DNA of 59,499 nt, taken from Parcubacteria bacterium SG8_24. GTDB taxonomy: Bacteria; Patescibacteriota; Patescibacteriia; SG8-24. This document shows, piece by piece, positions 1 to 23,534 of the stretch. The notes under the pieces were generated by a model, which was not told the origin of the DNA, did no database searches, and saw only the letters and a program-made list of their open reading frames with translations. The stretch is from positions 1 through 59,499 of the forward strand of contig LJNP01000002.1 in the NCBI GenBank assembly GCA_001303185.1. The letters run 5' to 3'. How positions within the stretch are numbered: the stretch's first letter is position 1; every line of letters begins with the position of its first letter. The translations under genes were made by a program, and so were the position numbers.

Positions 1-1647
1 CATCTGATCGGCCCGCAGACCGGCGGCAGCGCTGCCGCTCATGCGCTGCACCGTATCCCGGAAATCCTTGATCTGTCCGGACCGCTTCTCCGGATCCTGT
101 TCGCTCCGGTCGACGATCATGTCCGGGAACTGAGCCTTGGTCTTGGCCAGGGACTGCAGCGCCTCCACGTCATTGGTCGAACCGGCGAGCTGCTTCATCC
201 GATCCATGCTCTTGGCGATGTCGTTCTTCTCTTCAGGATTCTTGGCGCCGAAGGCCATGCCGGTCAGATTCTTCTTGAAATGGGCCAGCTGGCTGCGCTG
301 GGCCGCCGGACTCATCAAAAAGGTCGGGCCCTGGAAACGGTTGACCCGCTCCGATTCGGCGGCGGTCAGACCGGCATAACGCTCCTGTCGCCGCTGGGCC
401 GCGGCCGCCGAAGCGCCGCGTAACCGGGTCAGGGCCGCGCCGGCGGCGTACCGCGCCAGCGGCACCCGGGTCATGGCGCTCAGACCCTTCTCGGCCGCCC
501 GACCGAGCGCCGTCCGGGTCATCGCCGCACCGCCGACCGCCTTGGCGCCGCGCACGGCCATCCGGCCGCCGCGCATGGCCAGGCCTTTGGCCATGCCGAC
601 CGTGCCGCCGCTCACCTGATTGGCCATCATCACCCCGCCGATGAACAGGCAGCAGGAGATGATGAACTTCTGCAGGATATCGGCGGAGAAGGCCTCACTG
701 GCGTTGGCGTCGAGGTATTCCGGGTCGCCGGCGTCGGTAGGGAACCCGTGCGACATGCCGGTATCCACGGCCACGGTGATCAGCCCTAACCATAGGAAAA
801 AAGCCAGCACCGGACCGACCACCACCTGACTGGTGAACTTGGCCCACCACTGGCCGTAGAAGGTGCTGGCCTGACCGCCGGGGACCGACTTCAGGAAGAA
901 AGCGATCGGCGAAAGGATCACCAGGAGCCACAGATAGATGATGCGGATAGCCAAGGTGATCGTCATGATGATGATCACGCCTAGCGCGATGATCGTCAGG
1001 ATCAATGCCAAAAGCAGGGCCAGTACGATATTGGCCCACTCCACCTTGGCTACGTCCGGATTGCCCTGCATCAGCGAAGTGATGCCGAAGGCTTCGGTGA
1101 AGTTGCCGCCGGCGGCCTGGGCGAAACCGTTGACGAAAGTGAGCATGATCACCTGGGCGAAATCGATGAACAGGCCGCAGATGGTCCGTGAGAAGTTGAT
1201 GACGATAGCCACGATGAGCAGCCGCGACAGGGCCTTGCCGCCCTGACCGATGCTGTACTGCTCCATGCCGAGCATCGTGCCGAAGGCGAGCACCAGCAGG
1301 ATGACGATGAAGAACATGTTGGTCACGTCCCGCACGATGATCCAGCCGTTGCCGACCGCCGGAGCGGTCACGAAGCCGTTGTACTGGGCTATCTGGATCA
1401 GGATCCAGACCGCCAGGAGCAGCAGACTGCCGAAGAAATTAACGAAGACCTCGAGTATCCAGGCCAGAGCCTGATAGACGTACTGCATCAGGTCAGCCTG
1501 GGCCGGAGCGGCGACCAACAAGGTGCCGGTGAACGCCAATAAGGCCACCCCGAGTACGGTCGCCTTCTTGCGATCCAAGGCGCTGAATTTCCGTGCCGTC
1601 CCCAGGACGGCCCGAATCGCCTCTCTGTGGATTAAGCGCCTTCCCAT
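1..1647 (-). CDS. Polytopic membrane protein with VirB6/TrbL-like architecture (3' end runs off the window)
   Basis: Absent from the ORF track because it is open at the window edge. My own minus-strand translation from ATG 1647-1645 stays open for 549 codons to base 1: MGRRLIHREAIRAVLGTARKFSALDRKKATVLGVALLAFTGTLLVAAPAQADLMQYVYQALAWILEVF... It has a signal-peptide-like N-terminus (AAPAQA) and about 6-7 hydrophobic spans (IVILLVLAFGTML; LLIVAIVINFSRTICGLFIDFAQVIMLTFV; IVLALLLALILTIIALGVIIIMTITLAIRIIYLWLLVILSPIAFFL; VVGPVLAFFLWLGLITVAV). An Ala/Gly/Arg-rich and charged tail follows. Family assignment is by architecture only. Confidence 0.6.
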   Translation of the reverse strand, partial: MGRRLIHREAIRAVLGTARKFSALDRKKATVLGVALLAFTGTLLVAAPAQADLMQYVYQALAWILEVFVNFFGSLLLLAVWILIQIAQYNGFVTAPAVGNGWIIVRDVTNMFFIVILLVLAFGTMLGMEQYSIGQGGKALSRLLIVAIVINFSRTICGLFIDFAQVIMLTFVNGFAQAAGGNFTEAFGITSLMQGNPDVAKVEWANIVLALLLALILTIIALGVIIIMTITLAIRIIYLWLLVILSPIAFFLKSVPGGQASTFYGQWWAKFTSQVVVGPVLAFFLWLGLITVAVDTGMSHGFPTDAGDPEYLDANASEAFSADILQKFIISCCLFIGGVMMANQVSGGTVGMAKGLAMRGGRMAVRGAKAVGGAAMTRTALGRAAEKGLSAMTRVPLARYAAGAALTRLRGASAAAAQRRQERYAGLTAAESERVNRFQGPTFLMSPAAQRSQLAHFKKNLTGMAFGAKNPEEKNDIAKSMDRMKQLAGSTNDVEALQSLAKTKAQFPDMIVDRSEQDPEKRSGQIKDFRDTVQRMSGSAAAGLRADQM

Positions 1648-1759
1648 AAAGCAGGTTTTAGCCCGGTCGCGCATGGCCGGCGACAGGAGAATCGCCCCCT
1701 TATGCCGGCTATCGGGTCCGGACGAGCGGCCCCATCAGGCTGATGAAGCCTCTTCATAT

Positions 1760-1787
1760 ATAATACCACGATTTTTAGGGCGATTAA
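1760..1787 (-). promoter_or_regulatory. Sigma70-like promoter for the VirB6/TrbL-like gene
   Basis: The minus strand reads TTAATC-16 nt-TATTAT (TGg-extended). It lies in an AT-rich island inside GC-rich DNA, about 110 nt upstream of ATG 1647. Confidence 0.45.
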
Positions 1788-1834
1788 AGCTCCCTGGGGA
1801 TATCGTGGTCTGAGCTTATCCCGATAGAACCTAA

Positions 1835-1856
1835 GGCCGCCCCTGAGGGGGCGGCC
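1835..1856 (-). terminator. GC-rich hairpin after the giant gene (weak U-tract)
   Basis: Minus strand GGCCGCCCC-TCA-GGGGCGGCC followed by TTAGGTTCTAT, 35 nt after the stop at 1891. The stem is perfect but the T-tract is poor. Confidence 0.45.
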
Positions 1857-1890
1857 TTTACCGTATCTCAAGCCTATTACGGACTGCCTA

Positions 1891-4800
1891 TCACGGCCCG
1901 GACGACGGGCAGACCCCGTCACCGACGCAGACCCGGATCATGCCGGCGAAGGCGGTCCAGGGCGTCCGGCCGTTCGACGGCTCATAGGGTATCAGGTCGT
2001 CGAGCGGTTCGTTGAGCCTATGACATTCCTCGTTGATCTCATCGATCATGTCCGGCGAATCGATCTCCAAGGTCGCGTTGAAGCAGGCGTCACCGTTATC
2101 CGACCCGCCCGGACAGACACCGTTACAGGCGCCCCAGTTGTCGAGCAGCTGGATACGCGGCTTGAAGAAGCAGTCGCCGGAGGAGCCGCGGCAGGGGAAG
2201 ATACGCTCCCCGTCGCAGGCCGGCAGCTGCGCCGCGATCGGTTCGGAACAGGTGTAGATCTTGGTCTCCTGGAAGTAGGCCTTCTCGCAGGCCTGGGTGG
2301 TCAGTCCCCACTCCTTCTCGGCGACGTCCTGAGGGTTGCAGATGCTCTCCAGCGTACCGTCGAGATCGGCATCCTGGGCGCCGCGGTGGTTCTTGTAGTA
2401 ACCCCAGGTGACCACCGGATCGGTCCCGTCGCCGAAATCGACGATCTTGCGGCGGATCGGCATATGGTCCTTATCGGCGTAACCGTAGTAGCGCAGCGTC
2501 ACCTTGCCGCTGCCGCTGATCGGCACGATGCCGCTGGTCAGACCGACGACCGAATCCGGTCCGTAGACGGTGATGCCCGATCCGCCCTCAAGACACTCGG
2601 CCTCGCTCTTGCAGGGCTGGGAATCGTTGACCGTGACGATCTGCGGGACGGTATCCGTGGTCACGTAGGACCAGCGCATGTCTTCGGCCGGAGCCCCGGA
2701 ATTGTTACCCGGTTCAGTCGTGCCGTATTGTCCGTACTGGTCATCCAGATCATAATCCTCGTTCCAGGTATGCAGCTTCCAGGCGACGGCGAACATCCGC
2801 ATGATGCGGTTACGGCCGGTCTGATAGCTCTGGTCGCTGAGATAGCTGCTGCCGCAGTCGTCGTCGCAGGCGTAGGGGTAGCCGGCGAGATAGGTCTCGG
2901 TCTGCAGGGGATCGGTCGCCACCATCGAGTAGACACTCTTCTGATCGTCGTTCATGTAGCGCTCGCTGCTGATGTTGGTCCACTCGCTGCCGTACTCCTC
3001 CTCGTAGACCGGAATCGGGTAGGTCAGGGTGGTCCAGAGGGTATCGGACGGATCCGGGGTAAGCGGCGCGTAAGGCGACATCTCGGTGTCCTCGAGCGGA
3101 CCGTCCGGCGGCGGACCGTCGGTGTTGTGAACGTAATCGAAGATGCTGCCTGGGTCGAAGCCGGAGGGCTCCTCTTCCGTGCCGCCGTGGGCCCCGGAAG
3201 CCTTCCAGATGCGGTCGGTCCAGGCGACATTGGTGAATTCGCCGTCTGGCGAGGAGCCGCCGGTGCTGTCATGGACATGCAGGAAGTGCGTGCAGTTCTC
3301 CCGCAGGAGCAGCTTGATGCCGGCCGGCACGTGGTGGTAGATGGTCGAATCGTTGTGGCAGAGCGCCGTGTAGATGTCAGTCAGCTCTTCATTACCGTTG
3401 AACACGGCGACCACGCCGACGCAGTTGCTGTTGTCGTTGTCCTCCCGTGCCTCACAGGTGCCCTCGTAGCCGTCGCCGTCCCTCTTCTTGTTGATCATGG
3501 TGATGCAGGTACCGGAGGTAGAACCATCGATATGCGTTCCGGCGGCGCCGCTGTTCAGCCCCCAGTCGGGGTTGCCGTCCCAGTTGTAGGCCTCACGCCA
3601 CTCGCCGTTGCTGACCTCATCGTCGGAGGTCAGGTACATGTAGGCGTCACCTTCGCCGATGACACCAAAACGGATCTCGATGGCGGTTATCTGATGTTTC
3701 TTGAAGTCGTCCCATTGGTTGGGCAAGCAGTAATGCTTGACCTTGGCATCCTCCCAGGAGACGTTGAAGAGCCGGCCGGGCGAACTGCACGCCGGGTCGC
3801 TCCACGGTACCGTATCGCCGCCCTCGCAGACTTCATTCTGCGAATTTTCGCAGGTCTCCCACATCGCCGCATAGCAGGCGGTGCCGGAGCCCACGGATCC
3901 CCAGGGCCCGCTGATCAGGGCCGCGCCGATCATGACCGGGATGCAGATGCTGTTGTACATGTGGTAACCGGCGTCCTCGCAGGCATCAGCGCCCTCGAAC
4001 TCACCGTCATCCAAGGGCCAGGGCGCGTCCACCTTGGCGTGAGGGATGCAGCCGTCGGCTTTGCAGTTCCTGCCGTTAAGTACGCCGTAATTGTGCGAGG
4101 TGGTCGGACAGTCAGTGTCGTCGTCCTCGTAACAATAGTCGCTCCGGGTCTTGCAGGGCGAAGGGTAATCGTTGTGACCCGAAGCGCCCTCGTAGGCGTG
4201 CAATTCCACCTCGTAATCCTGACCTTCCTCGTTACCCTCGGCATAGGCGCAGTAGAGAAGCTGGCTGCGCTCCGGATTGAAGCCGGCCTCGCGGTACTGG
4301 TTGAAGATGTCGGTCATGCCGGAAAGCCGGTCCACCGGCAGCCACAGGTTGCAGTCGTAAAGGTCCTTGGAACCGTTGATGGTGGTCGACGTGTCGGAAT
4401 CGATGCACAGGCCGGGCCAGCCTAGGGCGCGGGAATACCTGGACAGGAAATTGCACTGACCGCCGCCCTCGGCCGGATCGCCGCAGCCCTCCGCGGTATC
4501 ACCGGTTTCAGAACATGGTTTGCCTTCATACTCACCGCCGACGCAGATACCGAGCGGGACTCCGGACGATATCTGCATCCCGCCGCCGGAGGTACCCAGT
4601 GACTTCTGAGGATTGGCCAGGGAATAGAACTTGGTCAGCACGCCGGCCTGCCCGTAACCCAGCCGCACGTAGCCGCATTCGCAGTAATTGCCGTACATGC
4701 AGGTGTAGGCGCCGTCATAACCCTTGACCCGGCCGACGGCATTGCCGTACTGGTCGAAACCCTGGACATGGCCGCCGAAACCGGTCTCGGCCACGACCTC

Positions 4801-7800
4801 GTAGCTGTAGGGGGAATCGGTCTCCGGATAGGCCCGGCAGGTCGGAGCGTAATCGAGCGTCTCCAGGGCGATCGGCCCGCCTTCGAGCGAATACATGCAA
4901 CGGTGCTCGAAGCAGAAACCGGTGCTGACGCCATCGGCGGCGATACGCGTCTCATCGAGCGGACAGTCCTCGTCGGTCTCGCAATACAGGGCGCAGGTGT
5001 CGGCGGTACCGTTGCAGTCGCCGTCGCTGCCGCAGGGACGGCCCATCATCGTGGTGTCGCAGGAGCTGCCCGGACACTGATCGTCATAGACGCAGGGCTT
5101 GCCGGCGTTGCCACCGCCGGAACAGATGCCGCGGCAGGCGGTGATGTTGACGCCGAACCGTTTGGTCAGGAGTTCGCTGGTGACGCAATAGCCGTTGGGA
5201 CAGTCGGCGTTCACCTCACAGGAAGCGTATTCCCGGTCGCCGCCGGCGCAGACGCCGCTGAGCGACGGACCGCAGAAGGTCCCGTCCGGACACTGGTCAG
5301 TGGTCCGACAATAGGTATAGGACCCGCCTCCCGCGTCATAATCCTCACCGCTGTTGATGTCCTTGCACCGGCCGGTGGTTATCTTGAACGGCGAGAGGTA
5401 CTGGGCCGGATACTTGCCGACCAGGCTGAAGCCGGAGTATTCCAGTCCGGAGTAGCGGATATCCCGGCTCATGTATTCGCTCGCGGTGAGCAGCTTCTTG
5501 GGCGGGTCGACCGGAGCGGAGCACTCGACGCCGATGCGGCCGAGCTCGGCACCCTCCTCGCAGAGGGTGAAAGCGCTGCAGATGTTCTGCCACTCGCGTT
5601 CCTCCTCCTGCCAGATCGTCTCCTGCTGCTTGCAGGCCAGCCACTGGGCGCATTCCCGGTCCGGCCGGACCTTGATGATGCGGTTGGTGTCGTTGCGGTA
5701 ATTCTCGGCGTGCTCAGGGAAACGGATCAGGAACTGCGGATCGTCCTCGCCGACGCAGATCTCGCTCATGTTGGTGTCGCAGTCGGCGTTGCTGTTCTCG
5801 ATACGGCAGCCGGTCGTGTAGAACGGTTCACCCTCGCAGATCTCGCCGCCGCCGCAGTCCGAATCGTTACGGCAGTTCTCCCGGGTGCCGGAACAGCTGC
5901 CGTCCTGGATGCGGAAACAGCGGTATTTGCACTCCTCCGGCCGTTCGTTACCGGAGATGTTGCAGTTGACCGGCGTCACCGCGATACCCTGCTGCATCTC
6001 GCTCTTCAGGTAGGTGGCGGCGGAAGAGAAACCGTTATAGGTATCGCTGGTCTGCTTGAGCAGCACGCAGGAATCCTTGAGGCTGGCCCCGCCGGCGCAG
6101 GAGGCGAAATCGAGCTTGTTGTTGTTGATGTAATAATAGGGTTCGCCTTCGGGATTGGCCGCGGAGCTGGCGATGGGATCCTTGTACTCCTCGCAGCGAT
6201 CGTATTCCGAGGGACAGACGCCGACCCAGCCTTGGTAGCCGCAGGTGGTATTGCCCTCGGCCACCCGGCAGGCGATGACCTCGGATTCGTTGCCTGGCTC
6301 ACCGACCGTGACCATGCAGAAGCAGCCGGTCTCCTCCTCGCAGGTATCGGGCTGGGAACCCTGATCGGGTCCGTCAGGCAGGCTGCAGGTCATGTCGGAA
6401 TTGCGGGAAATCTCGTAGACCGTGCCGTTGCGCAGCAGTTCCGGATAGCAGGGGAAGAGCGAACCGCTCTCCGACTTGCGGAACCAGCCGGAACGGCGTA
6501 CGCCGCCGAAGGTGACGCTCTCCTTGAACTCGCAGGTCTTGTTGCCGGGATGCTTGAAGTAATAGGTCCCGTCACCGCCGACGAACTCCTCGCAGCGGAC
6601 CGCTTCCTGCGGACAGAGTATCTCGTCGTAACGGGCCGGCTGGTCGAGTAGGGTGAGACCTGTCCACTCGGTGACGATGCCCTGCTCCAGGAACAGGCGG
6701 CAGTTCTGCGCACCCTGCTCGACGATGCAGCGGGCCGTGTCGATCTCGTCATGGACGCACTCGCAGCCGTCGACGTCGGGACACCGCGCCGGATAGCCGT
6801 TGATCCGGTAGGTGCAGATGTCTTCGTACTGGATGACCGGCTTGCCGAAATTGCGGCAACCGGCCGCGGTCGCGGCGCACTGGTTCTGGGGCCGGACCAC
6901 CAGATAGAGCCGTTCGTCGGCGTCGATGTTGATGCGATCCGGATTGGCGGTCGGCGCCGTGGAGTCGTCCCAGTTGTCCAGCGTGAACCGGCACTGACTC
7001 TCGCCCATCGGCACCCGGCAGACGTCATAGAGCAGCCGCGGCGCGTCCAGGCGGGCAGTCGGATCCTGGGTGTCGTAGTTGCAGACACAGGCCGGCGTCT
7101 GGTCTTCCGGTTCGGTACCGCAGACGTGACCCAGGTCGCAGACCGCCCGGAAGGACTGGGCGTAGGGGACCTCCGGTGTGTTCTTGGTGTCAGAGAAGGC
7201 CGCGCAGCCGACCGACCGCTCGCGGCAGAGCTGGCTGAACGAGCGCAGAAAGTGCTTCCGCCCCTGACTGTCGGTGTACTCGCGGCAGCCGAGCATCTCC
7301 TGCGGCGAATCGTTGCCGGTGATCGTCTGGTCGCAGGATTCCGGCGTCGACCAGGAATCGCGGACCACGAAGATGTTGTCGAGCACCTCGGTGAGCAGGA
7401 CGTTGTCCAGATAGACGTCGGCCAGGAGACCGTCTTCGGTCTTGAACTGCAGGTAGACGCTGGTCTCCCAAGCGTCGGTCGGACTGAGACAGCCTTCTGG
7501 ACCGGCCTCGAGACAGGAGCGGCGCCGGATCGTATCCCGACCCTCCGAGACGGCCGACGGTATAATGACCGGTCCGAGCAGGTAGTGCTTCCAGCCGGCC
7601 TCGAGCTCCACAGTGGCCGTGCTCACCTGGTCGTCGTTCACGCTGAAATAGAGGATATTCTGGGCGTCGAAGGCCGCCGTGCCGAGCCCGGCATCCTGGA
7701 CGAAGGAGGCCCTGAACTGTCCGTCGCCGCGGGCCCAGAAACTGAGGTTATAGGCGCGTCCCGGGGTGACCAGTTCGGTCACGTCGAGGTTGGCCAGTTC

Positions 7801-10800
7801 GGTCGGATTGCCGCCCGGCAGCCTCAGGGAATGTCCGCCGACGCTGACCGACTCCGGGGACTGGATCACCTGACTGACAGCCGCGGTCCAGCCATCCAGG
7901 CCCTCCTCGAAAGTGGAGAAGATCAGCTGGCGCACGTTGGAGGCGGCATTGCCCTTGTAGGCCCGGCACTCGTTGGAGGTCGGAGCGCAGGCCAGGCTCT
8001 CGGACGGGGCGGCCCGGTAGAGGCATTCATTACGCTCCCAATCGCCGTTCGAGGCCACGCAGTCTAGGGAGTTGGACCGGGTGATGCGGTAACGGTAGCA
8101 CTCGCTGGTGGCGATGATCGTCTTGGATAGCCGGCGGTAGTGCCGGTTACCGTCGGCGTCGTAGAACTCGCGGCAGTCGAAGTCACCGAGCTCGATGTCC
8201 GTCGGCGTGCAGAAGCCCGCATCCGTGTCGGTACCGTTGGTCGGACTCTCACAGCTGTTGTCGTCGGCGTCGATGTCGGTACAGGGGGCGTAGCCGGCCG
8301 TACCGGCGCCGCCCTCGGCCCGGATATCATAGGCGTCAGCGCCGCCGGCGGTGCTGACCAGAGAGGCGGTCCGTTTGAGGTTCCAGACCTTCAGCTGGTA
8401 GCCGGTGGTGTCGGAACCCTCCCAGGTGTAGTAGATGACCGAATCGGTATCATCCGGACGCTGGCAGAGGCGCAGCCGCGTATAATACTCGATCTCCTCG
8501 GTGTCGAGATTGGTGAACTCCGAGCAGCCGACCTCAGCCTGATTGCAACCCTGAGCCGTAGACGGGATGAAATAGGCATACGGTTCGGCGCTCTCGAACT
8601 CCGAAGCCTCCTGTTTGAACACGTCGTAACCGACGCATTCGGCCGGACAGTAATCCTGGAGGCCGACGATGCCCGGCACTGGCGGCTCGCCGGTCACGGG
8701 ACTGAAGAGCTCGCAACCCTGCTCCGTCTCACGACAGATGCCGGCGAAGGACTCGCATTCCGGCGGGTCGGTCGCCTCCCCGGTGCAGCCGAGGTAAGGA
8801 GGCGGGATCTTGGCGTAAATCATGGAACTCGCCGTACCGTACTTCTCGTGGAACTGGGTCGGCGGACCTTCCTCGAGCTGTACCCGGTCGACATAGGCCC
8901 CGCCGGCATAGTTGTTGCTGTACAGGATCAGATCGGCGAAAGCCACCCCGGGATCGCTGACCAGGAAGGTACAGCCGACGGTCGCCCGGTCGCTGGCACT
9001 GGTGTCGACGGCCACCTTAATGACATCGTCGCCGCCGTAGGTGGTGACGCCGCAGGATCTGGTGAAGTCATCGCCGAAGACCGAAGTCGAGACGTCGTTC
9101 ACGTCGATGACCTGGCCCATGTCGTCACGGAGACGCAGGATGATGGCGCCGTGGGTCTCAGTGGACCCGTCGCTCGGCGAGACGAAGTCGGCCCAGACCG
9201 AAATCATGCGGTCAGGACGGATACGTACCCGGTCCTGCATCACCACGTTAGTGACAGTACAGCTCATGGTGCCCTTGACTGCCTTACAGCCGTAAGGCTC
9301 GCCGCCGATGGTGGTCTCGCAATAGCAGCCCAGCTCCAAATCACAGGGTTGCGCAGGATTGAGCGTACAGATGGTGCTCGAGGCGTCGTTGATCCGGCCG
9401 ACATTGACGGCGGTCAGCGTGGTCTCCGCCCCGTCGAAGGTCCGGACGTAATTGCGGGCCAGGTACCCGGGAGCCGCGCCGGCTCCGGCCTGACAGGACT
9501 CGCCGGCACAGCCGTAAGGCGTCCAGTGCATGGCGTGGTCCGGATTGCCCGACTCGTCGCGGTCGGCGTTCTCCGAATCGGAGAAGCCACCGTTCCTGAC
9601 CAGGTTCAGCGAACTGCCCGTACCGAGAGGCACCAGGGCGGTACAGCCGTTGTCCCCCGGGGAACAGGTCGTGGTGTTGCGGTTGAAGTAGCGGGCCGGT
9701 TCCTGCCGCCAGTCGTCGCGGGGTTCCTTGTCATCGCCGACCAGGCTGGAACAGGTCAACGCCCCGTTGGGCACCCGGCACCGGATCTCGGCATCCGGTT
9801 CATCCACCGGATCGGGACAGAGACAACCCTGCTCCTGGTCGCAGGTCGACTCCAGGGTACAGTCCCTGATCACGCTGAGTTCGGTCGAGTAGTTCAGACA
9901 GCCGGCGTTATCGGCATTGCAGATGCCGGAATCTATCGTATTCATCAGGTAGCTTACCGGACCGCCGGTGCGCTGCTTGAGCGTCTTGCAGGTATTGAAA
10001 GCGGCCGGGCACTGGTCGCCGTTGAAGCGCCAAACGCGGCGTTCGCGCGTACAGTACCCGTAGCCGCCGATGCAGGCGCCGAAATCGTCCTGGGTCAGAC
10101 AGGTCGGCGCATCCACGCAGCGTTCCTGCCGGGTGGGGATGTCGGGGTCCACCAGATGCGGCCCGACCGCCCGGGCCTTGCAGAGCGCCGGCGGGGCCTT
10201 GATGACCCAATCGGGATCGATCAGGTGACAGAACGGGAAGAGCTCCTCGTCGATCTCGCCGGACTCGGGACAGTCGTGGAACCGGTTAACCACCTCCTGA
10301 AGGGTGATCTTGCTGTTACCGGAACTGCGGTGGGCCGCGATCTCCCAGCCGACCGGCAATATCCGGGCGGCCCGCAGCTTCTTGAGGTTACTCTCGCAAT
10401 AGGCGGTCCTGTAGCAGAGCGGATCGCTGTCGATCTCCCGGTCGATGGACGAGACCAGCAGCCAGTCGCCGTGCAGGAAACCCTTCTCGATCGCCTCGCC
10501 GACCGTGATGGAGAAGGCCTCGGAGACCCGGATGGCGGTGGAGAACTGCTCGTCGATGACACAATTGTTGGCCGAACGACCCACATCGGGACAGATGCTG
10601 AAATCGAGCAGCACGTCATAGACCCCGGCGTCCCGCGGTCGCGGCACGAGCATCGTCTGGCTCTTGGCTCGGGCCGCGCCTGACCGACCGGGCGGCCGCA
10701 CCACCCCCTCTTCAGTGAAGATCAGATCGGGCTGCAGCTCTTCCAGTTCCTCGGACGAAAGCAGGCCGGTGACGAACTTATTCCAGAGCGAGGACATCAG

Positions 10801-11703
10801 CGTCTGGACGAAAGTGCTGATGAAGGTGGCCAGGGCGGTGTAGATGGACCGGCTGGCGACCTGGCCGGCAGTATAGGCCACGGTATATTCCTGAGGCTGT
10901 TTCTCGCGCTGCTCCTCAGCCCGACGGAAGGCCTGCCGGGTCGTCTCCGGCGGAGCCAGCACCCGACCGGAAACCGCGTCCCGGATACCCTGGAAACCGC
11001 CGCCGGCCGCGGCGTCAGTGATCTTCTTGAGCGTCTTGTCGAACCGGCTGGTGGCCTGAGCCTCGAGCGTCTTGCCCATGATGCCGACCGAAGCGGAAAT
11101 CGGCGACTGGCCACGCTCAAAGGTCGGTTTCAGGCTATCCAGGAACTCGCCGGATTCGAGCGACTCATAAGCCGCGGTCCAGTTCTTGGCCAGCTCGTTG
11201 AAATCGCATTTCGGCGTGGGTGGTTTGACCTCATCCATCATGCCCAGCTGGATCTTCAGGGTGAAGGCGGCGCTGGGGTTACAGAGGTTGAATCCGGTAA
11301 AGGCCAGGTCCTCGGCCAGCGAACCGACCATCTCGCCGACCGCGCCTTTGGCGGCATCCTCGACGACGCGTTCCCCGAACGAGTCCCAACAGGGCTTCTC
11401 GCCGGGACAGTCGCCGAGGATGGAGATGGCCAGCTGATAGGCCAGCTGGCTCATGAAGTAGTTCAACCCGTTGGAGAGGGCCACGACGACGCCTTCCACG
11501 GCCACGTTCTTGATCTGCTCGAAGACATTCGTGACCGTGACCTGCGTCTCGGTGATCGGATCGGAGGTCACCCACTGGGCATGCGCTGTCTTGGGTCGGC
11601 CTAGGGAAAACAGGATCAGGAAAGATGGTATGACCAAAACAAGGAGCAGTAGGGTCGCCTGGACCCTGCCCCTTCGCGGTGAGTTACCTGTGTTACTGCG
11701 CAT
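1891..11703 (-). CDS. Giant (3270 aa) cysteine-rich secreted/surface protein with mosaic domain structure
   Basis: One uninterrupted 9813-nt ORF. N-terminal signal/anchor: RRGRVQATLLLLVLVIPSFLILFSLGRPKTAHAQW. It contains recurring six-Cys modules and D-x-D-C-P type mini-knots. Two jelly-roll/CBM4_9-like segments are marked by NLVRNGGFSD...AYVDRVQLEEG and LIFSTFEEGLDGWT...AYNLSFWARGDGQ...VYLDNVLLTEV. A PKD-like segment (VDFGDGTDPVV) lies near the C-terminus. Confidence 0.9.
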   Translation of the reverse strand: MRSNTGNSPRRGRVQATLLLLVLVIPSFLILFSLGRPKTAHAQWVTSDPITETQVTVTNVFEQIKNVAVEGVVVALSNGLNYFMSQLAYQLAISILGDCPGEKPCWDSFGERVVEDAAKGAVGEMVGSLAEDLAFTGFNLCNPSAAFTLKIQLGMMDEVKPPTPKCDFNELAKNWTAAYESLESGEFLDSLKPTFERGQSPISASVGIMGKTLEAQATSRFDKTLKKITDAAAGGGFQGIRDAVSGRVLAPPETTRQAFRRAEEQREKQPQEYTVAYTAGQVASRSIYTALATFISTFVQTLMSSLWNKFVTGLLSSEELEELQPDLIFTEEGVVRPPGRSGAARAKSQTMLVPRPRDAGVYDVLLDFSICPDVGRSANNCVIDEQFSTAIRVSEAFSITVGEAIEKGFLHGDWLLVSSIDREIDSDPLCYRTAYCESNLKKLRAARILPVGWEIAAHRSSGNSKITLQEVVNRFHDCPESGEIDEELFPFCHLIDPDWVIKAPPALCKARAVGPHLVDPDIPTRQERCVDAPTCLTQDDFGACIGGYGYCTRERRVWRFNGDQCPAAFNTCKTLKQRTGGPVSYLMNTIDSGICNADNAGCLNYSTELSVIRDCTLESTCDQEQGCLCPDPVDEPDAEIRCRVPNGALTCSSLVGDDKEPRDDWRQEPARYFNRNTTTCSPGDNGCTALVPLGTGSSLNLVRNGGFSDSENADRDESGNPDHAMHWTPYGCAGESCQAGAGAAPGYLARNYVRTFDGAETTLTAVNVGRINDASSTICTLNPAQPCDLELGCYCETTIGGEPYGCKAVKGTMSCTVTNVVMQDRVRIRPDRMISVWADFVSPSDGSTETHGAIILRLRDDMGQVIDVNDVSTSVFGDDFTRSCGVTTYGGDDVIKVAVDTSASDRATVGCTFLVSDPGVAFADLILYSNNYAGGAYVDRVQLEEGPPTQFHEKYGTASSMIYAKIPPPYLGCTGEATDPPECESFAGICRETEQGCELFSPVTGEPPVPGIVGLQDYCPAECVGYDVFKQEASEFESAEPYAYFIPSTAQGCNQAEVGCSEFTNLDTEEIEYYTRLRLCQRPDDTDSVIYYTWEGSDTTGYQLKVWNLKRTASLVSTAGGADAYDIRAEGGAGTAGYAPCTDIDADDNSCESPTNGTDTDAGFCTPTDIELGDFDCREFYDADGNRHYRRLSKTIIATSECYRYRITRSNSLDCVASNGDWERNECLYRAAPSESLACAPTSNECRAYKGNAASNVRQLIFSTFEEGLDGWTAAVSQVIQSPESVSVGGHSLRLPGGNPTELANLDVTELVTPGRAYNLSFWARGDGQFRASFVQDAGLGTAAFDAQNILYFSVNDDQVSTATVELEAGWKHYLLGPVIIPSAVSEGRDTIRRRSCLEAGPEGCLSPTDAWETSVYLQFKTEDGLLADVYLDNVLLTEVLDNIFVVRDSWSTPESCDQTITGNDSPQEMLGCREYTDSQGRKHFLRSFSQLCRERSVGCAAFSDTKNTPEVPYAQSFRAVCDLGHVCGTEPEDQTPACVCNYDTQDPTARLDAPRLLYDVCRVPMGESQCRFTLDNWDDSTAPTANPDRINIDADERLYLVVRPQNQCAATAAGCRNFGKPVIQYEDICTYRINGYPARCPDVDGCECVHDEIDTARCIVEQGAQNCRLFLEQGIVTEWTGLTLLDQPARYDEILCPQEAVRCEEFVGGDGTYYFKHPGNKTCEFKESVTFGGVRRSGWFRKSESGSLFPCYPELLRNGTVYEISRNSDMTCSLPDGPDQGSQPDTCEEETGCFCMVTVGEPGNESEVIACRVAEGNTTCGYQGWVGVCPSEYDRCEEYKDPIASSAANPEGEPYYYINNNKLDFASCAGGASLKDSCVLLKQTSDTYNGFSSAATYLKSEMQQGIAVTPVNCNISGNERPEECKYRCFRIQDGSCSGTRENCRNDSDCGGGEICEGEPFYTTGCRIENSNADCDTNMSEICVGEDDPQFLIRFPEHAENYRNDTNRIIKVRPDRECAQWLACKQQETIWQEEEREWQNICSAFTLCEEGAELGRIGVECSAPVDPPKKLLTASEYMSRDIRYSGLEYSGFSLVGKYPAQYLSPFKITTGRCKDINSGEDYDAGGGSYTYCRTTDQCPDGTFCGPSLSGVCAGGDREYASCEVNADCPNGYCVTSELLTKRFGVNITACRGICSGGGNAGKPCVYDDQCPGSSCDTTMMGRPCGSDGDCNGTADTCALYCETDEDCPLDETRIAADGVSTGFCFEHRCMYSLEGGPIALETLDYAPTCRAYPETDSPYSYEVVAETGFGGHVQGFDQYGNAVGRVKGYDGAYTCMYGNYCECGYVRLGYGQAGVLTKFYSLANPQKSLGTSGGGMQISSGVPLGICVGGEYEGKPCSETGDTAEGCGDPAEGGGQCNFLSRYSRALGWPGLCIDSDTSTTINGSKDLYDCNLWLPVDRLSGMTDIFNQYREAGFNPERSQLLYCAYAEGNEEGQDYEVELHAYEGASGHNDYPSPCKTRSDYCYEDDDTDCPTTSHNYGVLNGRNCKADGCIPHAKVDAPWPLDDGEFEGADACEDAGYHMYNSICIPVMIGAALISGPWGSVGSGTACYAAMWETCENSQNEVCEGGDTVPWSDPACSSPGRLFNVSWEDAKVKHYCLPNQWDDFKKHQITAIEIRFGVIGEGDAYMYLTSDDEVSNGEWREAYNWDGNPDWGLNSGAAGTHIDGSTSGTCITMINKKRDGDGYEGTCEAREDNDNSNCVGVVAVFNGNEELTDIYTALCHNDSTIYHHVPAGIKLLLRENCTHFLHVHDSTGGSSPDGEFTNVAWTDRIWKASGAHGGTEEEPSGFDPGSIFDYVHNTDGPPPDGPLEDTEMSPYAPLTPDPSDTLWTTLTYPIPVYEEEYGSEWTNISSERYMNDDQKSVYSMVATDPLQTETYLAGYPYACDDDCGSSYLSDQSYQTGRNRIMRMFAVAWKLHTWNEDYDLDDQYGQYGTTEPGNNSGAPAEDMRWSYVTTDTVPQIVTVNDSQPCKSEAECLEGGSGITVYGPDSVVGLTSGIVPISGSGKVTLRYYGYADKDHMPIRRKIVDFGDGTDPVVTWGYYKNHRGAQDADLDGTLESICNPQDVAEKEWGLTTQACEKAYFQETKIYTCSEPIAAQLPACDGERIFPCRGSSGDCFFKPRIQLLDNWGACNGVCPGGSDNGDACFNATLEIDSPDMIDEINEECHRLNEPLDDLIPYEPSNGRTPWTAFAGMIRVCVGDGVCPSSGP

Positions 11704-11750
11704 TGCGTCGCGGGTTATGAATGCGATGGTTGGTTGTCGGACCAGTCAGG

Positions 11751-12518
11751 TCACTCCTCGAACTCCTCTTCGGCCGGCGGCCCCTCCTCTCCCTCCCCGT
11801 CCAGCGGCTCTTCCATCCCCTCCACGACCGGGGCCTGACCCAGCATCGGCTGCAGTTCGACCAGCGTCTCCCGGAGCATCGCCCGGAGCACCTCATCCGA
11901 GGCCTTGTCCAGTTCCTGCTTGGGGAAGCCGAGGGTGATCAGGAAGGACCGGAGTTCGTCGGACGGCATCTCTTCCAGTCGCTCTACCATACTGTCCGGA
12001 GTCAGGGTCTCGAGGTCGCCGAAATAGGTCTCGATAGCGGCGAAGATCGGATGGGCCTGGGCGAGCGATCCGGTATCGGACGGGATGCTGGCGGAAGACG
12101 TGCCGACCGAACAGAGCGCTCCGACGCATCCGGTCGCCGGCTGGGACGAACCGGTCTGACGGCAGGTCTTGCCGCGTGGGCAGTTGGGATCCTGACCCTG
12201 GGCCACTTCGATCCCGTCAGGGATCGTGTCGGAATCGGAATCCTCCAGGAACGGGCTGGTGCGGAAGATGTAGAGTTCGTCGTAATCGTTCAGGCCGTCC
12301 TGATCGGTATCCGCGGCCCGCAACGCGGCCAGCCGCTCCGCCTCCTGTTCATCCAATGTCTTGAAGACGTAAGATGGATCCCTCTCGAGCGGTTCGTAGA
12401 TGTTCCGTTTGACGCGCAAAAAAGCGAAGACCAACGTCACCGCGCCGATCAGCAGGACTACGGCCAAGACGATACCCTGATGTCTTTTGTAAGCGTCTGA
12501 GCTGGCCATGGCTTTCAT
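11751..12518 (-). CDS. N-terminally anchored protein with thrombospondin-type-3-like Ca-binding repeats and an acidic C-terminus
   Basis: TM anchor GIVLAVVLLIGAVTLVFAFL, then DTDQDGLNDYDELYIF and DSDSDTIPDGIEVAQGQDPNCP (DxDxDG-type repeats), then an acidic tail EEGPPAEEEFEE. The track start is 12542. The promoter position favours ATG 12518 (MKAMASS) or ATG 12509 (MASS). Confidence 0.75.
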   Translation of the reverse strand: MKAMASSDAYKRHQGIVLAVVLLIGAVTLVFAFLRVKRNIYEPLERDPSYVFKTLDEQEAERLAALRAADTDQDGLNDYDELYIFRTSPFLEDSDSDTIPDGIEVAQGQDPNCPRGKTCRQTGSSQPATGCVGALCSVGTSSASIPSDTGSLAQAHPIFAAIETYFGDLETLTPDSMVERLEEMPSDELRSFLITLGFPKQELDKASDEVLRAMLRETLVELQPMLGQAPVVEGMEEPLDGEGEEGPPAEEEFEE

Positions 12519-12525
12519 TATATAA

Positions 12526-12555
12526 AGTATACCACGCCCCAACAGCCCAGTCCAA
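12526..12555 (-). promoter_or_regulatory. Sigma70-like promoter of the anchor-protein/giant-protein operon
   Basis: Minus strand TTGGAC-18 nt-TATACT with a TGg extension. A second overlapping TATAAT ends inside ATG 12518. The -10 boxes lie 7 nt from ATG 12518 or ATG 12509. Confidence 0.55.
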
Positions 12556-16278: not shown

Positions 16279-17389
16279 TTATTTGCCGCCCTTAGCCTTG
16301 CTGTGACGCAGATAGGACTCGATAAAGGGCCCGATATCGCCATCGAGCACGGCCTCGGTATCCTGCGTCTCATGCTTGGTACGGTGATCCTTGACCATGC
16401 GGTACGGATGCAGCACGTACGAACGTATCTGATTGCCCCACTCGGCGCTGGTGAACTCGCCCCGCAGCTTCCGCTTCTCCTCCTCGCGTTCCTTGAGGTA
16501 GATGGCGTGCAGCCGAGCCCGCAATATCCGCATGGCCGTCTCCTTGTTCTGGGTCTGGGAACGCTCGTTCTGGCAGGAGACGACGATACCGGTCGGGATA
16601 TGGGTAATGCGGACCGCGGAGTAGGTCGTCTGCACGCCCTGACCGCCGTGACCCGAGGCCAGGAAGGTATCGATCCGCAGGTCCTTGGGGTCCACCTGGA
16701 CCTCTTCGACCTCCCCCAGGTCGGGCAGGACCTCCACTAGGGCGAAAGACGTATGGCGCAGCTTGTCCGCGTCGAACGGCGACAGGCGCACCAGCCGATG
16801 CACCCCGGCCTCGGCCTTGAGATAACCGTAGGCGTAACGGCCCTCGAAGGCGACGGTGGCGCTCTTGATACCCGCTTCCGCGCCGGGATGCTTGTCCAGC
16901 ACCTTGGCCTTCCAGCCCCGGGATTCGGCGAATCGCAGGAACATACGCAGCAGCATCTCGGCCCAGTCCTGAGCCTCGGTGCCGCCGGCTCCCGCGTGCA
17001 CCGCCATCAGGGCGTCCCGGTCGTCGTACGGTTCGTCCATCATCGTCATGAACTCGAGGGACTCGAAGGATCGGAGGTAGTCACCGAACTGCCGGACCAC
17101 CTCGTCCTCGACCGACTCGTCATCCTCTTCGAGGGCCAACCGGACGAAAGCGAGCAGCTCATCCACTCCGTCCTTGAGCTTCTTCCATTCCGAATACTGC
17201 TCGCGGAGTCCGCCGAGCTTGCGGCTGAGACGCTGCGCCCGATCCCGGTCCTGCCAGAAATCCGGCTGCTGCGTCTCCTGTTCCAGGGAGGTTATCTCTG
17301 ACTGGAGCGAATCCAGGTCAAAGTAACCTCCACGTATCGGCGACGCGGGCAGCCAACTGCTCGATATCGTGGAGGTGTTGTTTCAACAT
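16279..17389 (-). CDS. prfB: Peptide chain release factor 2, requires programmed +1 frameshift
   Basis: Frame 0 reads MLKQHLHDIEQLAARVADTWRLL then UGA (17320-17318). The +1 frame continues DLDSLQSEITSLEQETQQPDFWQDRD... into the track ORF 16279-17166, which carries SPF (VRLSPFD) and GGQ (SGHGGQGVQT). Confidence 0.92.
17317..17332 (-). promoter_or_regulatory. prfB +1 recoding site (internal SD plus CUU UGA C)
   Basis: Minus strand TGGAGGTTACTTTGAC. An SD-like GGAGG lies 3 nt before the slippery CTT, followed by in-frame TGA and then C. This matches the canonical RF2 autoregulatory site. Confidence 0.9.
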
Positions 17390-21452: not shown

Positions 21453-22387
21453 GCGATCGACTTGAGTGACACCAGGCGTTCCCGGTACCGGCGGCTGAAA
21501 TCGGCGCGGCGGTCGGCGACATGGAACTTCAGCATGCGGTCATTGACCACCACACCCTTGCCGCGGTTCATGGCAGCAAGTATCTCCGGAGGGAAACGAC
21601 GCCTCTGAAAGGAGCGGGCGGGCGCCTCCAGAAGACGTAACAACGGCGAAAGGGGGCGAAGCCAGAACTTGGACCGACCGAGAGAGCGGACCGCCGCCGG
21701 CTCGACCGTACCGCCCGACGGCAGGAACCGTCGCGTCCAGGTATTGCGGGCGGTCAGCTCAGCCATGACCCCGCCGGCGTCGTATAACGGCATGAGCGTG
21801 GCCAGCCAATAGGCCAGATAGGCGTCGTCAGGGCCTAGATGGACTGGAGTCAGGTCCAGACTGTCGCTGGTGACGAAGAAACTCAGGCATAACCGGTCGG
21901 CGCTCTCCGTGGCAGTCGGACGGAGTCTCAGGAGATGCAGCAGACCGACCATGATGAGTCGGGTGATCCAGAGCTGACCGGGCCGCGTCACCACGAACAG
22001 GTCGATATCGCTGTCTTGATCGGCGTTGGCCAGGGCCAGGCTGTTGCAGACGGCGATGAGCCGTACCGAAGGCAGGTGACGAAAAACGCCGGCCCAGCGC
22101 CTGGCCAGGTCGTATTTGCGCTTGGCCAGACGGTAGCGGCGCTGACGGATCGACACTATCGCTTCCCGCCCTGACAGATGATAGTACCCATCATGCTGAC
22201 CGACTCCGACCGCGGTCAGGGCTTCCCGTATGGAATCCGCATCGACCGTCTCGGCCTCCCGATCGCCGTCACCTGTCAGGTAACGCGCTATCTCTGATAG
22301 GGTCAGCGGATAGTCGAACAGGTCGAAATAGGCGAGCGTCCTCAGCACGCGTCGACGGACTTCGATTTGGTGAGATCCTGCCAACAT
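21449..22387 (-). CDS. Hypothetical protein with nucleotidyltransferase-fold signature
   Basis: LIAVCNSLALANADQDSDIDLFVVT (GS/DxD-type NTase motif) after a wHTH-like FDLFDYPLTLSEIARYL. It overlaps the downstream gene by 4 nt. Start is either the track's 22459 or ATG 22387. Confidence 0.4.
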   Translation of the reverse strand: MLAGSHQIEVRRRVLRTLAYFDLFDYPLTLSEIARYLTGDGDREAETVDADSIREALTAVGVGQHDGYYHLSGREAIVSIRQRRYRLAKRKYDLARRWAGVFRHLPSVRLIAVCNSLALANADQDSDIDLFVVTRPGQLWITRLIMVGLLHLLRLRPTATESADRLCLSFFVTSDSLDLTPVHLGPDDAYLAYWLATLMPLYDAGGVMAELTARNTWTRRFLPSGGTVEPAAVRSLGRSKFWLRPLSPLLRLLEAPARSFQRRRFPPEILAAMNRGKGVVVNDRMLKFHVADRRADFSRRYRERLVSLKSIA

Positions 22388-22430
22388 AGGCCGACCCGCT
22401 GACCGCGCGGCCTTACCGGCACGGACCGGG

Positions 22431-22760
22431 TCATCCCCGACCCGCCTGCCTGACGGCATTGACCGCCCCGGAGGGTGCCGTGCCGGCGGCCCGCTCGCTT
22501 ACTTCGATACCGACCCCCTCCTCTACGGTGACGGTGTTGTCTTCGACCACCATCTCCTTGTCGTCCAGGGAGACGACTTGTGAGGCACGTATCAGCAGCC
22601 GGGGCGGCGACAGCACGGGTAATCCGCGCGTCTTCCTCACCGCATACTGCACTACCGTCTGTGTCTCCACATCGATGATCACGCCGGCCACCTTACCCAG
22701 ACGGGTGCCGCCGACAGTGCGGACCGGGAGTCCGCGCAGTTCTGAATCACGTAAGAACAT
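22431..22760 (-). CDS. PRC-barrel domain protein
   Basis: LRGLPVRTVGGTRLGKVAGVIIDVETQTVVQYAV pattern. 109 aa. Confidence 0.6.
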   Translation of the reverse strand: MFLRDSELRGLPVRTVGGTRLGKVAGVIIDVETQTVVQYAVRKTRGLPVLSPPRLLIRASQVVSLDDKEMVVEDNTVTVEEGVGIEVSERAAGTAPSGAVNAVRQAGRG

Positions 22761-22797
22761 ACGCCTGATACGAACACGTGAGCGGAGGTGCCGGCCA

Positions 22798-23529
22798 TCA
22801 GGCGGCGGCCTCCGGTTTGCCTTTGCGGAAAAATATCGCCTGCTGGGCGATGGTCAGGAGGTTCATCACGAACCAGTACAAAGCCAGTCCGCCCGGCAGC
22901 TGCATGCCGATGAACACGGTGACGAACGGCATCACGTACATCATCTGCTTGTTCATCGAGGAGAGCATCTGTTCATCCTTGGCGCCGGGGGTATCCTTGG
23001 GCTGGCGTCGGGTGACCATCATCCTGGCCTGGAAGAACTGTCCGATGCCGGCCGCCAAGGCCAAGGGCAGACTCGGCAAGGCCAGATTGATCACGCCGAG
23101 CAATGACGGCTCGATGACCTCGGGTTGACTGACGAACGAATAGAGCAGCTCGAAGCCGCTCGACTGGAGGCCGTGTGACATCGCCTGATAGAGGGCGATG
23201 AACACCGGCAGCTGGATCAGGAGCGGCAGGCAGGAAGAGGCCGGATTGACCTTCTCCTGGGAATAGAGCTCCATCAGCTTCTTGGCCAGCTCCTCCTTCT
23301 GCTCCTTGTCCTTATACTTCCTCTTCAACTCCTCGACCTTGGGCTGCAGATCGGACAGGGCCTTCTGCGATTTGAGAGCCTTGGCGGACACCGGCCATAG
23401 CACCAGCTTGATGAGCACGGTCAGGATGATGATGGCGACCCCGATATCATGCCCGGGCACCAGGTTATACAGCCCGATCAGCAGGTTGAATATCGGCTGG
23501 TAGAAAATGGTGTTGTAGAAGGCGCTCAT
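22798..23529 (-). CDS. yidC: Membrane protein insertase YidC (short, Oxa1-like form)
   Basis: AIIILTVLIKLVLWPVSAKALKSQKALSDLQPKVEELKRKY, LPLLIQLPVFIALY and GGLALYWFVMNLLTIAQ. The track start GTG 23538 sits only 1 nt after a GGAGG. ATG 23529 has better spacing. Confidence 0.88.
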   Translation of the reverse strand: MSAFYNTIFYQPIFNLLIGLYNLVPGHDIGVAIIILTVLIKLVLWPVSAKALKSQKALSDLQPKVEELKRKYKDKEQKEELAKKLMELYSQEKVNPASSCLPLLIQLPVFIALYQAMSHGLQSSGFELLYSFVSQPEVIEPSLLGVINLALPSLPLALAAGIGQFFQARMMVTRRQPKDTPGAKDEQMLSSMNKQMMYVMPFVTVFIGMQLPGGLALYWFVMNLLTIAQQAIFFRKGKPEAAA

Positions 23530-23534
23530 AACGC

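Follow-up and report, generated by a model that had tools for sequence, protein, structure and literature searches.

We have analysed a 59,499-nucleotide stretch of DNA (the window; contig LJNP01000002.1 of Parcubacteria bacterium SG8_24, positions 1 to 59,499, G+C ~62%). One end of it carries three neighbouring genes, all on the minus strand, which encode from 5' to 3' a small membrane protein with thrombospondin type 3 (TSP3) repeats, a giant Cys-rich secreted protein of 3270 residues and a VirB6/TrbL-like polytopic membrane protein. Judging from its gene content, the region makes up the 5' half of a type IV secretion system (T4SS) locus, and the T4SS is of the MPF-FATA-like type published for Patescibacteria (PMC12102498, PMC10633639). 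We propose, with a probability that we put at roughly 55%, that the TSP3 anchor and the giant protein together serve this T4SS as its extracellular module for host contact, and for the part of the Patescibacterial T4SS that touches the host we regard the giant as the best candidate to date.

The locus would be chromosomal and vertically inherited in an Uhrbacteria/ABY1-like Patescibacterium. The giant protein would be exported by Sec, lose its signal peptide and fold extracellularly into a rigid, disulfide-cross-linked scaffold (168 Cys, at most 84 bonds), on which two CBM4/22-type glycan-binding modules would be displayed. Since it has neither a sortase signal nor a C-terminal transmembrane segment, its retention at the surface would be non-covalent, through the Ca-binding TSP3 anchor and/or the VirB6 platform. 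There it could recognise the host envelope and adhere to it, and so bring a VirB6/VirB3/VirB4/VirB8-like translocon to the host bacterium, a role functionally analogous to that of PrgB-type adhesins or of VirB5 and pilus tips. Export and disulfide formation of the giant, its tethering by the TSP3 protein, host-glycan binding, coupling to the T4SS and the nature of the T4SS cargo are all things that we infer from sequence, predicted structure and gene order, on which every functional statement here is built, and the same applies to the attachment or contact-dependent delivery function that an earlier note on this DNA had suggested.

The giant gene (1891..11703, minus strand, ATG start) was first described as a single open reading frame (ORF) of 9.8 kb, and we find it uninterrupted and genuine, since the identical 3270-residue product is encoded on a second contig, of 177 kb, from the European Nucleotide Archive (ENA; L001), and full-length homologues exist in other genomes. 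Over the 21.7 kb compared, L001 and the window differ at 3 scattered positions and at 107 others, the latter all in a patch at window 1-700 (L001 21000-21703) that lies in the C-terminal domain of the VirB6-like protein. Because of this near-identity, the two contigs come from one population, and strain-level variation marks the end of the window, within the VirB6-like gene. This microdiversity at the contig end is the sole support for regarding the 9.8-kb ORF as an assembly chimera or a fused pseudogene. That reading is effectively refuted by the same product on the 177-kb contig and by more than 1000 clusters of co-linear homologues of 2500-3800 residues, with Cys columns conserved from end to end, and we consider it excluded.

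A word-based search returned 76 full-length homologue clusters, almost all of 2600-3700 residues and annotated as 'hypothetical', from Uhrbacteria, Falkowbacteria, Magasanikbacteria and unclassified Patescibacteria. Searching 1.84 billion representatives with a profile made from the first 350 residues gave 2935 matches at E<=1e-3, of which 1035 reached E<=1e-30, so that the family comprises more than 1000 clusters at 50% identity; in the best 150 matches the matched head is N-terminal and nearly all the proteins are 2500-3800 residues long. When 15 full-length members were aligned, dozens of Cys columns proved invariant, spread over residues 141-3193. The size of the family, its narrow range of lengths and these invariant columns show that the ORF is a genuine gene under strong constraint. 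That the named homologues all belong to Patescibacteria (Uhrbacteria, Falkowbacteria, Magasanikbacteria) is consistent with the earlier guess of a small-genome episymbiont.

The protein contains a single strong hydrophobic segment, at residues 12-35, followed by an AHA↓Q cleavage site, which bears out the signal or anchor sequence first noticed there. The signal peptide (residues 1-42, window 11578..11703, minus strand; AHA↓QWVTSDP, family consensus PxPAxA↓Q) is typical and predicted to be cleavable. Next comes an all-helical head (residues 43-350, 10654..11577, minus strand) that is as poor in Cys as had been reported (for its first ~330 residues): just 4 of the 168 Cys (5.1% of the protein) fall among the first 350 residues. 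The most conserved part is a Cys-rich 'neck' (residues 355-700, 9604..10641, minus strand), which has no known homologue and shows 24 invariant columns in its alignment (A4).

Two segments first read as jelly rolls turn out, from profile matches in Pfam and the Protein Data Bank (PDB), to be carbohydrate-binding modules (CBMs). The first is a CBM4-like beta-sandwich with insertions (residues ~700-946, 8866..9606, minus strand), whose profile matches the PDB sequences 4d0q, 1gui and 1k42 with E-values from 9e-6 to 4e-4; it is more divergent than the second, a CBM_4_9 or CBM22-like module (residues ~1255-1440, 7387..7941, minus strand). In the latter, Pfam CBM_4_9 (PF02018) matches residues 1261-1329 with 3.9e-7 and 31 bits (cut-off 25.9), the same domain is present in 12 of the 15 family members scanned, and the segment profile matches the CBM22 structure 4xup with an E-value of 2e-11. 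By these matches the giant carries two CBM4/CBM22-type modules, for which sugar binding is predicted.

Outside these modules, Pfam gave nothing beyond CBM_4_9 and PHROGs and NCBIfam nothing informative. Segments 355-700, 1900-2500 and 2500-3270 had no match in PDB profile searches (355-700 had none in Pfam either), and the whole protein had none among PDB chains. As for the mosaic of Cys-rich modules that the earlier note had seen, no internal repeats were detectable by self-BLASTP; what does recur is a C-x5-GC-x2-[FY] hairpin motif, found 10 times between residues 595 and 1840 (mean 2.6 and maximum 8 in 500 shuffles), with Cys columns invariant across the family. The PKD-like segment (residues ~3050-3135, 2299..2556, minus strand) did not hold up as a domain and its identity is unconfirmed: there is a VDFGDG...H.Y motif, of the VDFGDG/IDWGDG kind ((V/I)D(F/W)GDG), with no Pfam PKD match and no PDB match, and PKD profiles run on 23 homologous C-terminal segments gave no match at E<=0.1. 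The coordinates and descriptions first given for the three genes are correct apart from this segment. We found in the giant no LPXTG motif, no C-terminal hydrophobic or transmembrane segment, no second transmembrane segment and no Pfam adhesin or polymer-adhesin domain. The sole further hydropathy peak is a weakly hydrophobic stretch, ICIPVMIGAALISGPWGSVG, at residues 2586-2605 (window ~3889-3948).

This composition also bears on the idea that the giant is a substrate or effector delivered by the T4SS, such as a toxin or a host-wall-degrading enzyme. The gene adjoins a T4SS, its CBMs could direct a lytic activity to host glycans, and a link to cell-wall degradation has been drawn for giant proteins found in predatory bacteria (bioRxiv 10.1101/2023.11.21.568195). 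However, the protein has a classical Sec signal peptide and not a C-terminal T4SS signal, its 84 potential disulfides are incompatible with unfolded T4SS transport into a reducing cytoplasm, and no catalytic domain was detected with Pfam, NCBIfam, PHROGs or PDB profiles. For these three reasons we hold an effector role to be very improbable.

The TSP3-repeat membrane anchor protein is encoded 47 nt upstream of the giant's start (11751..12509, minus strand; 252 residues by the gene call, with an ORF that extends to 12542). It has an N-terminal transmembrane signal anchor, a CPxGxxC motif, two repeats of the Ca-binding DxDxDG type (DTDQDGLNDYDE and DSDSDTIPDGIE) and an acidic helical tail. With TSP3_bac (PF18884), whose cut-off is 25, the window copy stays below threshold at 14.9 bits, while three orthologues score 24.2, 27.5 and 30.8 bits. 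In the orthologues both DxDxDG motifs are kept, with the D-T-D-x-D-G and D-S-D-S-D columns invariant, so that the earlier description of a membrane-anchored DxDxDG protein 5' of the giant stands. The orthologue lies directly 5' of the giant gene in L001, in three further homologue-bearing long contigs (with L001, L001-L004) and in 13 other loci.

On the other side of the giant, after a gap of 216 nt, lies the gene of the VirB6-like protein (1..1674, minus strand, with possible starts at 1674 and 1647), which runs off base 1 of the window after 558 of its 977 codons. As previously described, a signal-like segment precedes several membrane helices, about 7 by hydropathy. The full protein, read on L001, has 977 residues, with an Ala/Lys/Arg/Glu-rich C-terminal domain of ~600 residues that is presumed to be cytoplasmic. 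An AlphaFold2 (AF2) model of residues 1-400, made with 28 sequences (pLDDT 76.5, pTM 0.67), has about 7 long helices, among them 53-87, 96-125, 133-179, 204-244, 260-293 and 322-345, in agreement with hydropathy. When this model was compared with the PDB by Foldseek, each of the five best matches was a TrwI/VirB6 chain from the R388 stalk (E 1.3e-3 to 1.6e-2, probability 1.00, ~290 aligned columns, TM-scores of 0.42-0.48 on the target); the next was a designed repeat protein with an E-value of 0.06. We checked that chain 7o3v_F is indeed TrwI. The structural likeness to VirB6/TrbL that had been suspected is therefore found.

Sequence methods say less about this protein. The family profile retrieved from PDB sequences coiled-coil noise from the C-terminal domain only, hhalign against the single TrwI sequence covered 38 columns with 1% probability, and PHROGs and NCBIfam gave nothing informative. 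Searches detected 243 homologues, of 850-950 residues and all from Patescibacteria where named; TrbL matches 4 of the 28 homologues scanned (best 6e-4), and L004 as well as ~25 of the top 120 carry precomputed TrbL_3 annotations. Compared with TrwI/VirB6 of R388 (PDB 7o3v, 8rt9), its sole PDB fold match, the window protein is likewise a polytopic helical membrane protein, shares a conserved LSPL...F.QW segment and is also encoded with VirB3 and VirB4. Unlike TrwI, which has 342 residues, it has 977 and the ~600-residue C-terminal domain, and the sequence similarity of the window copy is too low for a Pfam match. The TrwI fold match, together with the linkage to VirB3 and VirB4, gives good evidence, part of it from a model, that the downstream protein is an 'extended' VirB6. 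We liken it to TcpH/ConG of Gram-positive elements, which we take to be extended VirB6 proteins as well.

The earlier note had proposed looking for secretion ATPases past the end of the window, and L001 carries one there. Its order beyond window base 1 is VirB6-like, two acidic proteins, PrgI/VirB3, a VirB4 N-domain, a VirB4 ATPase and a VirB8-like protein. The acidic proteins X and Y (L001 22975-24387 and 24402-26030, 470 and 542 residues, no transmembrane segment) lie between VirB6-like and PrgI, share a ~130-residue module (BLASTP 1e-9) and are kept in most related loci; they match no informative Pfam, NCBIfam or PHROGs family and would be paralogous cytoplasmic components associated with the T4SS. 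The PrgI/VirB3 protein has 144 residues (Pfam 5e-8, 33.8 bits, cut-off 27). It is followed by a 236-residue protein that matches the N-terminal regions of TrsD, VirB4_plasma and VirB4_CagE (TrsD below its curated cut-off), and by a VirB4 ATPase of 636 residues that belongs to the NCBIfam CD1110 family NF045971 (2.1e-99, 333.8 bits, cut-off 325). VirB4 is, by these family matches, split over two genes and of the monoderm type. The last member, of ~206-210 residues (L001 29183-29813; L002 28478-29098), is a conserved bitopic protein with an N-terminal transmembrane segment, a Pro/acidic linker and a globular C-terminal domain of ~110 residues; it has no Pfam match and by its architecture alone looks like VirB8 (VirB8/NTF2-type). 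No relaxase or coupling protein was found among the called genes of L001-L004 or the larger ORFs of the window that were scanned, and no VirB2-like pilin gene was called inside the block in L001-L004.

Monoderm (MPF-FATA-like) T4SSs are widespread in Patescibacteria, usually lack a relaxase, often lie near ksgA and the replication origin and include TrsD, PrgI and VirB6 homologues, while VirB8 homologues are almost confined to class ABY1 (PMC12102498). In the Saccharibacterium Southlakia epibionticum the T4SS is essential for growth on the host (PMC10633639), and Patescibacterial T4SSs are presumed to act at the host interface (PMC12102498, PMC10633639), where they are also drawn (PMC10633639, PMC12857230). 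The present locus resembles these systems (Wang et al. 2023, PMC10633639; Quinonero-Coronel et al. 2025, PMC12102498) in a VirB4 nearest to the CD1110-type family, a separate TrsD-like gene for the VirB4 N-domain, PrgI/VirB3, a VirB6 homologue, the lack of an adjacent relaxase or type IV coupling protein and a chromosomal position near ksgA. It also shares with ABY1-type loci the ComF-like gene that follows, which we saw after the block in one of the three further long contigs. It differs from the published descriptions in its Cys-rich protein of ~3000 residues and its TSP3 anchor, and from the Saccharibacterial T4SS, which has essential arrays of VirB2-like pilins, in that none is called inside the block.

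The three genes had been expected to co-occur in relatives if they act together, and they do. In L001-L004, at 27-45% identity, the common order is KsgA, TSP3, giant, VirB6-like, two proteins, PrgI, TrsD-like, VirB4 and a protein of ~200 residues; in L002-L004, whose giants show 27-43% identity, 0-4 genes are inserted between giant and VirB6-like, the latter has 800-976 residues and the VirB4 N-domain protein is TraC-like or TrsD-like. A scan with the VirB6-like profile, one genome per species, found a relative in at least 563 genomes, from which 80 loci were retrieved. In a tblastn census, the block VirB6-(X)-Y-PrgI-VirB4N-VirB4C-VirB8-like turned up in essentially all loci whose sequence reaches far enough in the 3' direction. 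Upstream sequence of 6 kb or more was available for 61 species-level loci, and in 41 of these the giant lies at most 10 kb upstream of VirB6, either adjacent or 1-6 kb apart. The TSP3 gene is directly 5' of the giant wherever that region is visible.

Two observations made along the way concern these loci. In L003 a gene with an M23 peptidase domain and several small genes lie between giant and VirB6-like (21892-23586), and the peptidase could be a wall-opening, VirB1-like component. Further, many public records of metagenome-assembled genomes that hold this Patescibacterial locus (L006, L007, L014-L016, L037 and others; P0002, P0003) bear the names Binatia, Eisenbacteria, 'uncultured Gammaproteobacteria', Acutalibacteraceae or Planctomycetota, and are probably mis-binned contigs or carry placeholder names.

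A host-contact module of TSP3 anchor and giant draws on four sets of findings: for the identity of the T4SS, the PrgI, VirB4 and TrsD/VirB4-N matches and the VirB6 fold, with TrbL or TrbL_3 in homologues; for linkage, the common strand, the gaps of 47 and 216 nt, the order TSP3-giant-VirB6-...-VirB4 in L001-L004, the 41 of 61 loci with a giant near VirB6 and the almost invariant T4SS block downstream; for an extracellular, adhesin-like nature, the AxA↓Q site, the invariant Cys columns, the two CBMs and the lack of LPXTG and of a second transmembrane segment; and from the literature, the known features of the Patescibacterial T4SS and the contact function left without an adhesin. Several facts weigh against it. 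More than 85% of the giant, as judged by domain searches, has no recognisable domain. The window copy of the VirB6-like protein matches neither Pfam TrbL (PF04610) nor TrbL_3 (PF19590) at E<=1, and the E-values of its model-based Foldseek matches are modest (1e-3). In ~20 of the 61 VirB6 loci no giant occurs within 10 kb and Cys-poor genes stand there instead, so that the T4SS has no strict need for an adjacent giant; where both are present, giant and VirB6 are often split by 1-6 kb of other genes. Moreover, GroEL, PrfB, Sua5, MFS and KsgA are conserved neighbours too, and the adjacency of giant and T4SS may reflect a general synteny of the region.

These facts lead to the main rival explanation, according to which giant and TSP3 protein form a system of general envelope function or for scavenging nutrients (a coat like an S-layer, or a means of capturing glycans) that is merely syntenic with the T4SS. 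The housekeeping-type genes upstream (GroES/EL, PrfB, Sua5, an MFS transporter and KsgA) are equally syntenic, one third of the VirB6 loci have no adjacent giant, insertions part it from VirB6 in many genomes, and in the window its gene is followed by a strong hairpin and the 216-nt gap. In addition, large Cys-rich extracellular proteins with no noted T4SS link have been described in Peregrinibacteria, which belong to the Candidate Phyla Radiation (CPR; Anantharaman et al. 2016, PMC4736985). On the other hand, down to ~27% identity the giant keeps both its strand and its place directly 5' of the VirB6 block, its head domain was seen in this context only among the 84 loci examined, and coincidence is unlikely for a single-copy 10-kb gene placed, in a genome of ~1 Mb, beside the only host-interaction machine. 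We therefore think an envelope system that only neighbours the T4SS unlikely, although it is the alternative to be taken most seriously. The Peregrinibacteria proteins themselves (PMC4736985) share with the giant a CPR origin, signal peptides, a high Cys content and a proposed role in attachment; they differ in forming multi-gene clusters and in their length of ~1650 residues, a distinction that we draw from their description.

The position of the giant's head, encoded directly 5' of VirB6, raises the further question of whether it takes the place of VirB5. An AF2 model of the head made with 30 sequences (pLDDT 67, pTM 0.46) consists wholly of long helices (49-96, 105-136, 201-233 and 270-314). 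Foldseek found nothing significant for it (best E 0.36) and no VirB5, TraC or CagL, and the hidden Markov model of the head had no match in the PDB. Many homologues carry Q-x-(I/L/F)PV-x-D directly after the signal peptide (e.g. AQGIPVGD, AQLPVFDPAQFAQN), and mature R388 TrwJ/VirB5 starts with QGIPVFDG; in the improved R388 structure these very residues (Gln23-Ala33) make up the stalk's tip, which is hydrophobic and needle-like (PMC11294453). A strict form of the motif was seen in 19 of 77 members, and the window protein has it in degenerate form (QWVTSDP). When the head alignment was compared by hhalign with one of 24 VirB5 sequences, the probability was 43% and the E-value 2.5e-4 over just 23 N-terminal columns, which run from the last part of the signal peptide through the motif and are in part generic signal peptide. 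Pfam DUF4141 matches weakly at the motif in 3 of 30 heads, Pfam VirB5 (PF07996) in neither the giant nor the heads, and no short head-only protein was found in the 84 related loci. We therefore find no support for placing the head in the VirB5 family, as there is no fold match and no Pfam match and the hhalign similarity is confined to 23 N-terminal columns, and retain such homology as no more than an improbable lead.

The N-terminal motif and the gene order, taken alone, suggest a VirB5-like tip role for the giant. It could then be an integral T4SS subunit with a hydrophobic tip, its head seated on the VirB6 oligomer and its Cys-rich body of ~2900 residues forming, in place of a pilus, a large structure outside the cell for docking or penetration. 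The gene order would correspond to virB5-virB6, trbJ-trbL and traI-traJ, the post-signal motif of many members to the R388 residues that form the stalk tip, and the lack of a VirB2-like pilin among the called genes of the block in L001-L004, the all-helical head, the hhalign score and the weak DUF4141 matches agree with it. The brevity of the hhalign match, the Foldseek result, the scarcity of the strict motif with its degenerate form in the window protein, and the missing head-only proteins speak against it; also, to our knowledge, monoderm T4SSs normally lack VirB5. Known tip proteins (VirB5, TrwJ, TraC, CagL) resemble the giant in their Sec signal, elongated helical domain, gene position directly 5' of virB6 and proposed contact with the target cell, and many members of the giant's family, though in the window protein only in degenerate form, in their hydrophobic Q-G-IPV-x-D-type mature N-terminus. 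They differ in having ~220 residues, whereas the giant adds 2900 residues to its helical head, and in offering no fold match and a profile similarity of 23 residues. We consider an integral VirB5-type subunit doubtful, still less likely than mere synteny, and are just as hesitant about the architecture that would follow from it, an ABY1-type T4SS without a pilus in which the signal-cleaved N-terminus of a VirB5-analogous giant would be a tip that probes membranes, its head would oligomerise on VirB6, and several copies of its disulfide-locked, CBM-bearing body would build a large extracellular structure that recognises host glycans and opens or holds the host envelope for transfer. If true, a pilus-less, giant-bearing T4SS would be a previously unrecognised architecture in more than 1000 lineages, and the stalk and tip principle of Gram-negative bacteria would extend, in a very different form, to monoderm ultra-small bacteria.

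A host-contact module of TSP3 anchor and giant, which we prefer, makes PrgB-type adhesins (pCF10) a counterpart by role. These are also large Sec-exported surface proteins encoded with a monoderm T4SS and are thought to set up cell-cell contact; the analogy is one of role only, as the giant lacks both a polymer-adhesin domain and LPXTG, is unrelated to them in sequence, is 2.5x larger and is rich in disulfides. The 2025 survey of Patescibacterial T4SSs, the only one to span the phylum, did not detect adhesins such as PrgB (PMC12102498), and for this reason the contact function was left unassigned; its text contains none of the terms 'giant', 'large protein' or 'TSP3'. Full-text literature searches found no description of the giant family or of its link with a T4SS. 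The earlier note could place neither the giant nor its partners in a described family. For the T4SS part this does not hold, as the Patescibacterial T4SS has been published, while the conserved CBM-bearing giant, with its TSP3 anchor, appears to add to it something not described before.

Of the Patescibacterial machines, the T4SS alone has been shown by genetics to be essential for epibiotic growth. The giant would offer a concrete candidate for host contact: a single-copy 10-kb gene in a genome of ~1 Mb, set between a Ca-binding anchor and VirB6 and conserved in more than 1000 lineages. Its two CBMs could reveal the host ligand and possibly the hosts of uncultured Uhrbacteria and Falkowbacteria, and the large paired alignments can be used for co-evolution analysis and multimer modelling with VirB6.

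Among the non-coding elements, a G+C hairpin (1833..1858, minus strand) with a perfect 11-bp pairing of its arms (AAGGCCGCCCC/GGGGCGGCCTT) and no T tail lies directly 3' of the giant's stop codon; a terminator, an attenuator or an mRNA stabiliser are possible from its sequence. A sigma-70-like promoter candidate, a consensus match only, occupies the gap between KsgA and TSP3 (12526..12554, minus strand; TGGACT-17-TATACT, TG-extended). The promoter of its own first assigned to the TSP3 gene thus has one consensus-like site in its favour, but the region holds 3 promoter-like sites, a number no higher than in shuffled sequence (mean 2.4), and in the scan for promoters and terminators the counts were not above shuffles. 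An Rfam scan of the window found three tRNAs and nothing else.

Elsewhere in the window, a prfB-like ORF (release factor 2; 16279-17166, minus strand, GTG start) has 295 residues, compared with 325-383 in related loci; the usual programmed +1 frameshift or a mis-called start may account for its shortness. Two histidine kinases are encoded in tandem (29563-31164 and 31174-32823, minus strand), the second with an N-terminal HisKA_7TM sensor region. Finally, a 561-residue protein (49780-51465, minus strand) ends in an OmpA-type peptidoglycan-binding domain, in a bacterium that is presumably monoderm.

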